From: Escherichia phage PhiR44_1
Direction: 5' to 3' (one strand)
DNA length: 32,366 nucleotides
Sequence record: PV340563
A model generated the notes under the pieces. That model searched no databases. It was given only the letters and a program-made list of their open reading frames with translations, and was not told the origin of the DNA. The number at the start of each line of letters is the position of its first letter. Position 1 is the first letter of the stretch. The translations under genes were made by a program, and so were the position numbers. Below are positions 24,465-25,608 of the stretch, piece after piece.

Positions 24465-24685
24465 GTTGTATGATCTCTGGAGTGAGCAAACATATCTATG
24501 GCACAGAGTAAAGCCTAATCTGACAGGCCGCTCTGTGTCTGGAGTAGATTTTAGTAAAGCATTATTTTATTAGTGCAAATTCTAATCAATACATTTTATG
24601 TATATGATATCCTGCAGACTTTAATGACTTGGTTTAGGCTAACCAGATAACACTGAAGGAATATTTTTGATAATTAAGGTGCGGT

Positions 24686-25279
24686 ATGTTTACTAAGCGA
24701 CGATTAAAAAATATTAACTGGGAGGCAAGTTCAGTGATTCTTGCTATGGTTCTCTTTGTTGGAAATATATTTTATACAAATCATCGTGATGATATAAGCA
24801 TGGAGGCTGAGAGGGACAGTATCAGAACAATGTTTGCATATGAAATCGCTAATAACCATCGCGCTCTCACTTTTCTTGATAAAACGAGATATATTGGCTT
24901 TGACGAAAATTCGGAGCATTTTGTTGGCGAGCCTTTTGCCATTAATGTCAAATCATTAGGGGGGCCTCGCTTACAGATTGCATTAAACCAGACTGATAAA
25001 GTGTTTAAATCCTACTTCAGCGAATTAAGTAAGCTTGATAAAGAGGATGTTACTCTTCTTATGGACTATTACCATGAGCAAAGCATCCTGCTGGAGCGTG
25101 TAAAATCTACGTTACAGAAGATGAAAAGTGGTAATGATATTAAAGTTGATATTGATGGTTACTTATTAGAAGAACACTTCATGAATGAGCTTAATCTTTC
25201 TAATATTTTGCTTAAACGCTATAGCCATTTGTTGTCACAACACGCCAAAGAACATAAAACAAAAGATTTACATAATTGA
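24686..25279 (+). CDS. Hypothetical membrane-anchored protein (cargo at the Z/fun position)
   Basis: 197 aa. N-terminal basic stretch then a hydrophobic helix (SSVILAMVLFVGNIFY); the rest is hydrophilic and K/E/D-rich. Strongly AT-rich gene and flanks; no recognisable family. Confidence 0.65.
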   Translation: MFTKRRLKNINWEASSVILAMVLFVGNIFYTNHRDDISMEAERDSIRTMFAYEIANNHRALTFLDKTRYIGFDENSEHFVGEPFAINVKSLGGPRLQIALNQTDKVFKSYFSELSKLDKEDVTLLMDYYHEQSILLERVKSTLQKMKSGNDIKVDIDGYLLEEHFMNELNLSNILLKRYSHLLSQHAKEHKTKDLHN

Positions 25280-25476
25280 TAATCTGCTAATGGTTATTCA
25301 TGGGGTAACTATGTTTTATATGTAATCCAACTCAGATGAATTATTGATTCTGGATAATAACCGCAGAGCGGCATATACCCTGACAGGCAAATGTCCGCTT
25401 CTTGTTCAAAGCAGACCGTCAGATTTGATAACTTTTGGGCTATGTAAATTGTCAGTCGGAAAATGAGTGAGTTCAA

Positions 25477-25503
25477 ATCAGGACAGGCGGGCGAATTGCC
25501 CGC
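25477..25503 (+). terminator. Intrinsic terminator downstream of the Z/fun-position cargo gene
   Basis: GGCGGGC-gaatt-GCCCGCC followed by TTTTCTTT. Confidence 0.65.
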
Positions 25504-25608
25504 CTTTTCTTTATCTGTTGTTTCATCCACTGACCAGCCAGGTCAAATAGCGTCTCATGCTCTGCACAACAGAAAATAGTTGCACCCATTAACCACGGAG
25601 TTAAACGG

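Follow-up and report, generated by a model that had tools for sequence, protein, structure and literature searches.

What is the function of the lone foreign gene located between the tail-fibre assembly gene G and the tail sheath gene FI of some P2-like prophages? The question is raised by a 32,366-nucleotide stretch of DNA of Escherichia phage PhiR44_1 (sequence record PV340563), called here the window. It is a P2-like (Peduovirus) prophage extending from an integrase open reading frame (ORF; 122-1132, minus strand) through the late genes to D and ogr; gene identities other than those tested directly were assigned from the P2 gene order. An original prediction, made from the letters of the window, described its G-FI interval (24465-25608) as a cargo island encoding a single membrane-anchored protein, a candidate for superinfection exclusion or abortive infection. 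The genomic contexts of the gene lend some further strength to that reasonable interpretation, which is unproven and has one indirect negative result against it. The reading favoured here, tentatively, is that the protein acts at the inner membrane to keep incoming DNA out, in the manner of a superinfection-exclusion factor. The gene still has no assigned function, despite its presence in about one-fifth of the E. coli prophages with this FI flank and its location at a hotspot of several anti-phage systems. Should it block DNA entry, it would represent a structurally new family beside the few understood Gram-negative exclusion proteins, with a bearing on phage-therapy host range; should it have no anti-phage activity, it would be a warning that residence in a defence hotspot does not prove defence.

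The cargo gene and the limits of the foreign DNA

The interval contains one cargo gene, situated, as predicted, at 24686..25279 (this and all further coordinates refer to the plus strand of the window unless stated otherwise). It starts with ATG and codes for a protein of 197 amino acids (aa) and 23.1 kDa. The ORF is a real gene under purifying selection: the ratio of non-synonymous to synonymous substitution rates (dN/dS) is 0.08-0.15 when the gene is compared with its homologues in Salmonella, Pantoea, and Kosakonia, whose proteins are 57-69% identical; synonymous sites in these comparisons are saturated or nearly so. The E. coli alleles differ by 4 synonymous and 11 non-synonymous changes, too few to judge diversifying selection. 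Dozens of E. coli contigs carry annotations of shortened, 99-aa versions (P0041 and P0043, belonging to the same 90% cluster), which suggests gene decay in some lineages.

The foreign DNA is an AT-rich insert of ca. 856 bp at 24538..25393, as delimited by BLASTN break points, pairwise alignments, and the GC profile. The original prediction was right in placing foreign cargo between G and FI, while its island covered the whole of 24465-25608; homology to P2 (NC_001895) stops only at 24537 and restarts at 25394, so that the foreign part is restricted to the DNA between these points. The insert replaces a P2 stretch of ca. 2.1 kb comprising the V-operon terminator and fun(Z). P2 carries fun(Z) at this very position, on the opposite strand, in agreement with the assignment of the interval to the Z/fun accessory hotspot of P2, termed a second defence-enriched locus (Vassallo 2022). 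The strong AT-richness noted earlier was also found: the G+C content is 0.34-0.37 across 24400-25400 and 0.47-0.61 in the flanks. Judged as a moron in the sense of Hendrix and Juhala, it has the foreign composition expected, with a G+C content of 0.35 compared with 0.48-0.56 in the flanks. The G-FI interval is 97-100% identical in seven P2-like phages (P24E6b, P24B2, P22H1, D8, 12W, AC1, and SIDE7). The edges of the insert carry the direct repeat CTGACAGGC at 24520 and 25380 (left region 24520-24535, right region 25364-25425), the inverted repeat GCCGCTCTG/CAGAGCGGC, and an imperfect inverted repeat of 19 nucleotides (nt). The copies of CTGACAGGC were considered as recombination sites and rejected; the left copy is inexact in P2, which makes a chance origin of these repeats probable.

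The ATG codon is preceded by a T-rich leader (24664..24685) in which a Shine-Dalgarno sequence, AAGGTG (24676-24681), is readable 4 nt upstream of the start. The leader, TTTTTGATAATTAAGG, is identical in a copy of the gene on an Enterobacter plasmid (L009) and present in a Pantoea copy (L010). An alternative in-frame start, GTG at 24734 with a strong GGGAGG 8 nt upstream, would give a product of 181 aa and is used in the annotations of AC1, SIDE7, and a 149-member protein cluster. The ATG at 24686 is favoured because the INWEA residues lying upstream of V17 are conserved as protein: residues 10-16 (INWEASS) are kept at the protein level across 24 homologues (53-70% identity). The 181-aa product is thus less likely, its good GGGAGG site notwithstanding; if made in vivo, it would be without the basic tail and would begin inside the membrane helix.

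Further upstream, the block at 24578..24613, with TATGAT at 24603-24608, is a candidate promoter region. It is identical in 30 of 36 positions (83%) to the region upstream of the Pantoea copy, whose product is 69% identical to the window protein and whose synonymous sites are near saturation. Since this 36-nt block and the TTTTTGATAATTAAGG leader are common to the Pantoea and Enterobacter copies, some upstream signal travels with the gene.

The protein, its predicted fold and its family

Hydropathy and the charge count agree with the architecture proposed earlier, in which a basic N-terminus is followed by one transmembrane helix and then by a soluble domain. Residues 1-12 (24686..24721) form a basic tail (K4, R5, R6, K8), predicted to be cytoplasmic and ending in a conserved I-N-W. 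They are followed by the single transmembrane helix (residues 13-31; 24722..24778), with an asparagine, N27, invariant among close homologues, a predicted periplasmic four-helix bundle (residues 32-178; 24779..25219), and a variable His/Lys-rich C-terminal tail (residues 179-197; 25220..25276). The 19-residue Kyte-Doolittle mean of the hydrophobic segment is 1.54; an acidic stretch follows it, and there is no second hydrophobic segment. The soluble part is ca. 30% charged, with a net charge of -5 and a pI of 5.9. A cleavable signal peptide was rejected, as no Ala-X-Ala-type site follows the hydrophobic stretch and the helix is unbroken in the structural model.

Each of the 38 family members examined has exactly one hydrophobic segment, with a mean net charge of +2.5 on its N-terminal and -0.7 on its C-terminal flank. 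By the positive-inside rule applied across these members we infer that the N-terminus is cytoplasmic and the soluble domain, the bulk of the protein, periplasmic. The distant members of the family have very basic N-terminal tails. Moreover, the 217-aa subfamily of P0068, like several other distant members, has exactly two cysteines in the C-terminal domain, and in all three distant sequences examined (P0059, P0064, and P0068) they form a C-terminal CxxxC or CxxxxC pair, as expected of a disulfide-forming compartment. These distant proteins (P0068 and P0080-P0085 of loci L014 and L015, and P0059 and P0064) are 215-218 aa long and 16-26% identical to the window protein, and their N-tail is longer as well as very basic.

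The AlphaFold2 model built from an alignment of 42 sequences has a predicted local distance difference test score (pLDDT) of 84, with all five models at 81-84; an earlier one from 24 sequences was weaker (pLDDT 74). In the model an unbroken helix of residues 12-66 passes from the membrane into the bundle and, after a loop (67-91), helices 92-100, 105-116, 119-148, and 151-178 complete an up-down four-helix bundle, while the tails, 1-6 and 186-197 (pLDDT <50 in the latter), are of low confidence. Differences between two E. coli alleles include several in the C-terminal tail and others scattered through the bundle. R47, N57, and L117 are invariant in the family alignments, and A51, Y52, I54, Y128, F165, and S172 nearly so; R47, A51, Y52, I54, and N57 lie in the first bundle helix, just outside the membrane. 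The best-conserved segment is that of residues 10-30, with a majority-residue fraction of 0.90 (0.52-0.86 elsewhere). Such conservation of the membrane and juxtamembrane stretch suggests specific helix contacts, i.e., more than anchoring. No conserved catalytic-looking or enzymatic motif was found in the model or the alignments, and a confidently modelled bundle of this kind is more in keeping with a binding module than with a catalyst.

Comparison with known folds brings in one alternative to a role in defence. No Foldseek match in PDB or BFVD reached E <= 0.001, and the best match in a PDB sequence-profile search had an E value of only 0.29. Recurring among the weak structural matches were the ligand-binding bundles of sensor kinases and chemoreceptors (Tar, Tsr, PilJ, PcaY, and LytS-N), in which the first transmembrane helix (TM1) likewise passes directly into helix 1 of an up-down periplasmic bundle. 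The window protein differs from them in having neither a second membrane helix nor a cytoplasmic signalling module, and it ends 19 residues after the bundle. It could be seen as a chemoreceptor or histidine kinase reduced to TM1 and the sensor, devoid of the signalling half, and its role could be lysogenic conversion of host physiology, the protein pairing, through the membrane helix and the first bundle helix, with a host inner-membrane sensor or transporter and altering envelope signalling, uptake, or stress responses. The continuity of the membrane helix with helix 1 of the bundle and the top conservation of the membrane segment fit this proposal, as do the published lysogen tests discussed below, in which no defence phenotype attributable to the gene was seen. 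Nevertheless, the structural matches are generic, with de novo designed bundles scoring as well or higher, so that on the models the resemblance is one of fold class only. None of 18 diverse family members matched a sensor-domain family of Pfam, 4HB_MCP and TarH among them, at E up to 1, and the repeated occurrence of the gene in defence hotspots and beside defence genes fits defence better. A function in host physiology is therefore judged unlikely.

The family is already catalogued, though uncharacterised, and the hotspot is a known one. The window protein matches PHROG 3829 over its full length (residues 1-197 on profile positions 1-197, E 2e-137), a family whose function label in PHROG is "unknown", and it bears the name "lysogenic conversion protein" in NCBI and UniRef. 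The same protein, or one nearly identical to it, is encoded by Peduovirus P24E6b, P24B2, and P22H1 and by phages D8, 12W, AC1, and SIDE7; both names are labels only. No model of NCBIfam carries the name, which may simply reflect position, and a literature search by family identifiers and topic found no study of the protein nor the basis of the NCBI name. The protein belongs to no recognised curated family, as the original prediction had it: no Pfam match was found at E up to 1, and none of the 5027 models of PADLOC-DB 2.0 matched at E up to 10. The same PADLOC models gave only scattered single matches with the 18 members (E 0.004-0.006, one member each). In NCBIfam, which was otherwise empty, a match to rSAM_yydG was dismissed as chance (13.8 bits against a cut-off of 300). 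In all, 38 cluster representatives were found among 5.8 billion proteins, and a profile run against 1.84 billion representatives found 28 matches, 17 of them at E <= 1e-10. The members with a named source are all from Enterobacterales (Escherichia, Salmonella, Pantoea, Kosakonia, Pluralibacter, Enterobacter, Dickeya, and Pectobacterium), and the full-length ones have 179-218 aa, without extra domains.

Distribution of the gene and its possible role

Of 5426 complete E. coli genomes, 201 (3.7%) contain at least 80% of the interval and 1018 contain the FI-proximal flank, so that the cargo gene is present in roughly one-fifth of the E. coli prophages that have this flank. The match in E. coli A10 (NZ_CP028764) is 100% identical. 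Outside P2-like phages the homologues are everywhere lone genes in cargo positions of unrelated mobile elements. They are found directly 3' of the primase gene in P4-like satellites (Pantoea ananatis, Kosakonia, and a viral contig; L008, L011, and L017), in a Pantoea integrative element with an AlpA-family regulator gene and an insertion sequence (IS) element (L010), beside anti-restriction and RadC genes (Antirestrict and RadC; L012), and on an Enterobacter IncFII plasmid with replicon and IS91 genes (L009). A distant member lies on the opposite strand between the tail genes of a Pectobacterium siphophage (L016), and the P0068 group is located on conjugative elements of Salmonella, among transfer genes (L014), and of Dickeya (L015). 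In six of the seven other contexts examined the G+C content of the coding sequence is 0.31-0.37, even with flanks of 0.5-0.68, the remaining one being the copy beside the anti-restriction gene (0.45). The insert is thus proposed to be a self-contained, horizontally mobile single-gene cassette (a moron), and its spread over elements as different as phages and satellites, conjugative elements and plasmids suggests a benefit independent of the carrier.

Known or candidate defence genes adjoin the gene or lie within ca. 3 kb of it in three contexts. At the end of a Salmonella lambdoid prophage (L005) it stands beside a type II methylase and a restriction enzyme (PADLOC E 3e-182 and 4e-178), in the Dickeya conjugative element it is ca. 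3 kb from SIR2-HerA (E 4e-51 and 6e-169), and in another P2-like phage (L018) it occupies the other hotspot, after the portal gene, 45 bp downstream of PDC-S49 (E 4e-88). In the last locus (2172-4585) the member, 32% identical to the window protein, follows a KAP-type P-loop NTPase, which is the protein matching the PADLOC candidate PDC-S49. Both hotspots of P2 have been described as reservoirs of defence genes.

The tentatively favoured reading, a block of DNA entry, would work as follows. The protein, made in the lysogen and probably also through read-through from the late tail operon, would be a bitopic inner-membrane protein with a short basic cytoplasmic N-terminus and a conserved helix continuing into the first helix of the periplasmic bundle. 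The bundle and the membrane helix would bind the incoming DNA-delivery apparatus (the tape measure, tail tip, or ejection proteins) or, alternatively, a host inner-membrane protein needed by this apparatus; with either target the foreign DNA would fail to cross the membrane. A domain predicted to be periplasmic could not sense phage DNA or proteins in the cytoplasm and so would have to meet the delivery machinery or the membrane proteins that it uses; this predicted orientation favours exclusion of DNA entry over an intracellular abortive-infection sensor. The exclusion reading is favoured because of the predicted periplasmic display, the habit of occurring as lone cargo, the defence neighbours and hotspots, and the analogy to two known exclusion proteins, HK97 gp15 and P22 SieA.

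HK97 gp15 is a small moron protein encoded in or next to the tail genes, which inserts in the inner membrane and blocks DNA entry, leaving the outer-membrane receptor untouched (PMC3594210). The distant member in the Pectobacterium siphophage is likewise an opposite-strand moron within a tail module. The window protein differs in its folded helical bundle of ca. 145 residues, and its role is a predicted one; homology to YebO or gp15 found no support, with no Pfam match at E up to 1 and no YebO-like proteins in the family searches. P22 SieA, a prophage inner-membrane protein of 162-164 aa, interferes with the ejection-protein conduit and so prevents the delivery of DNA (PMC10883804). It resembles the window protein, itself predicted to lie in the inner membrane, in being prophage-encoded and of similar size, but three membrane helices are predicted for SieA, together with a cytoplasmic FxRYPxEAxxFNK motif (PMC10883804), whereas the window protein has one helix, a predicted periplasmic bundle, and no such motif.

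The occupant of the same interval in P2 offers a third comparison. Fun(Z) of P2 is the product of an exclusion/abortive-infection gene active against T5-like phages and many myoviruses, and, like the gene studied here, it is non-essential cargo of foreign composition; a block of T5 growth and sensitivity to FUdR are its characteristic effects. Unlike the window protein, Fun(Z) has 528 aa and is encoded on the opposite strand, and the BLASTP E value between the two proteins is 3.3. A tblastn search with the window protein against 50,697 phage records, P2 included, matched only 12 records, and P2 was not among them. The window protein was hence rejected as a Fun(Z) homologue, and by these sequence comparisons the two genes are alternative cargos rather than relatives.

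A further alternative is that the gene protects the host against agents other than phages, i.e., colicins, tailocins, type VI effectors, or incoming conjugative DNA (entry exclusion). The predicted periplasmic location of the soluble domain would suit such a role; distant members lie in or beside conjugative transfer genes (TraG_N, TraU, and TraC) and ArdC, and one Pantoea member is near Rhs/WHH toxin-immunity genes. Phages and satellites make up most of the occurrences, though, no similarity to known immunity or entry-exclusion proteins appeared in the Pfam, PADLOC, and PDB-profile searches, and no toxin gene adjoins the cargo gene in the window, which leaves this alternative improbable. In a bolder reading the protein would be a "half-receptor", TM1 and a sensor-like bundle devoid of a signalling half, which by means of the unusually conserved membrane helix and the first bundle helix would dock on a host inner-membrane protein exploited by DNA-translocating machines, in a new mechanism of entry exclusion. 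Blocking both phage and conjugative DNA in this way would explain the carriage by phages, satellites, conjugative elements, and plasmids; the idea is a long shot.

Several findings weigh against the favoured block of DNA entry. The main one comes from published work, in which E. coli C lysogens of four P2-like phages were made (Rousset et al.). Two of these phages have the cargo gene, the protein being 95% identical in AC1 and 99.5% in SIDE7. The phages used to challenge the lysogens were lambda, T4, P1, 186, CLB_P2, LF82_P8, AL505_P2, and T7, T5 not being in the panel (Rousset 2022). Protection was reported for AC1 alone and was reproduced by the TIR system of its other hotspot (Rousset et al.); the negative result for the SIDE7 lysogen is implied, not stated, there. 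Assuming expression, the cargo gene thus gives no visible protection against those eight phages in E. coli C. The classical targets of the P2 gene at the Z/fun position are T5-like phages. Furthermore, no experiment on any family member was found in the literature, and the protein resembles known exclusion and defence proteins neither by sequence nor, specifically, by structure in the searches given above. The defence-gene neighbourhood is an association only, from a handful of loci, and the topology call comes from the positive-inside rule. As to expression in the lysogen, a consensus promoter scan gave 2 matches, with 4.1 expected from shuffles, which is not above chance, and the gene is co-oriented with the late operon, no canonical terminator following G, so that late tail-operon transcripts may run into it.

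The negative lysogen data also weigh against abortive infection effected by this protein alone, in which the periplasmic bundle or the membrane helix would sense a perturbation of the envelope by an infecting phage, the protein would oligomerise through its membrane helix, the membrane potential would collapse, and the cell would die before phage release. The membrane helix is highly conserved and contains the asparagine N27, membrane proteins are thought to be the effectors of abortive systems (Rousset 2022), and the defence-hotspot context would fit. One helix with a large folded bundle is atypical of pore formers, a cytoplasmic part of ca. 12 residues leaves no cytoplasmic sensing domain, and a partner gene is conserved in none of the contexts. 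Abortive infection therefore seems rather improbable.

The orientation of the gene and the missing canonical terminator could also indicate a late phage accessory, such as a lysis-timing or spanin-like envelope protein or a helper of tail or fibre assembly. Inner-membrane spanin subunits have a type II topology and a charged helical periplasmic domain, a likeness to the predicted architecture. Only ca. 20% (201/1018) of the E. coli prophages with this FI flank have the gene, however, and it is found on plasmids, conjugative elements, and satellites which lack tail or lysis genes. The model is a compact bundle and not an extended coiled coil, and there is no ORF for a partner lipoprotein, the internal ORFs having no lipobox. 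A spanin-like role was rejected on these grounds, and a late accessory function of any kind is highly improbable.

Transcription signals and neighbouring genes

The upstream neighbour of the insert is the G homologue (23937..24464; 77% DNA identity to P2 G; Pfam Caudo_TAP, E 3e-34), coding for a tail-fibre assembly protein and being the final gene of the V-W-J-I-H-G late operon. Just 3' of it a backbone hairpin conserved in P2 is found at 24496..24542 (folding energy, dG, -22.6 kcal/mol; z -4.4). It has no U-tract and is therefore not a canonical terminator; it could serve to stabilise or attenuate transcripts where the V operon ends.

The original prediction gave the cargo gene a clean intrinsic terminator of its own. 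The hairpin is real (25480-25510, dG -20.1 kcal/mol, z -4.5, followed by TTTCTTT, the whole element spanning 25480..25514), with none of 200 shuffles folding as well, but the terminator lies ca. 200 nt beyond the cargo stop codon, within the backbone common to P2, and belongs to that backbone and not to the gene. It would stop the transcripts of G and of the cargo gene ahead of the promoter of the FI operon. The late promoter region of this operon (25516..25608) comprises an activator site at ca. 25516-25541 and a transcription start at ca. 25583-25585, both positions being transferred from the P2 annotation via alignment. It precedes FI, the tail sheath gene and right flank of the interval (25609..26799; Pfam Phage_sheath_1, Phage_sheath_1C, and Gp18_domIII_N). 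An Rfam scan of 24300-25700 gave no match better than E 0.44. On the minus strand a 73-aa ORF is present at 25309-25589, and a 38-aa "hypothetical protein" is annotated on that strand in phage P24E6b; each overlaps the terminator as well as the promoter region of FI, and neither is likely to be a gene.

The other P2 hotspot of the window, between A and Q (5919-9069), is occupied by a type II restriction-modification pair. It consists of a C5 cytosine methylase (5919-7070; Pfam DNA_methylase, E 3e-55; PADLOC MTase_II and DrmMII-like) and, on the minus strand, a restriction enzyme with a GHKL ATPase domain (7111-9069; PADLOC REase_II, E 3e-91). The tail-fibre gene H (21174-23933) codes for a product of 919 aa, the P2 and AC1 products having 669 and 681 aa, respectively. 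Since AC1 has the same cargo gene together with an H of different length, fibre type and cargo assort independently.

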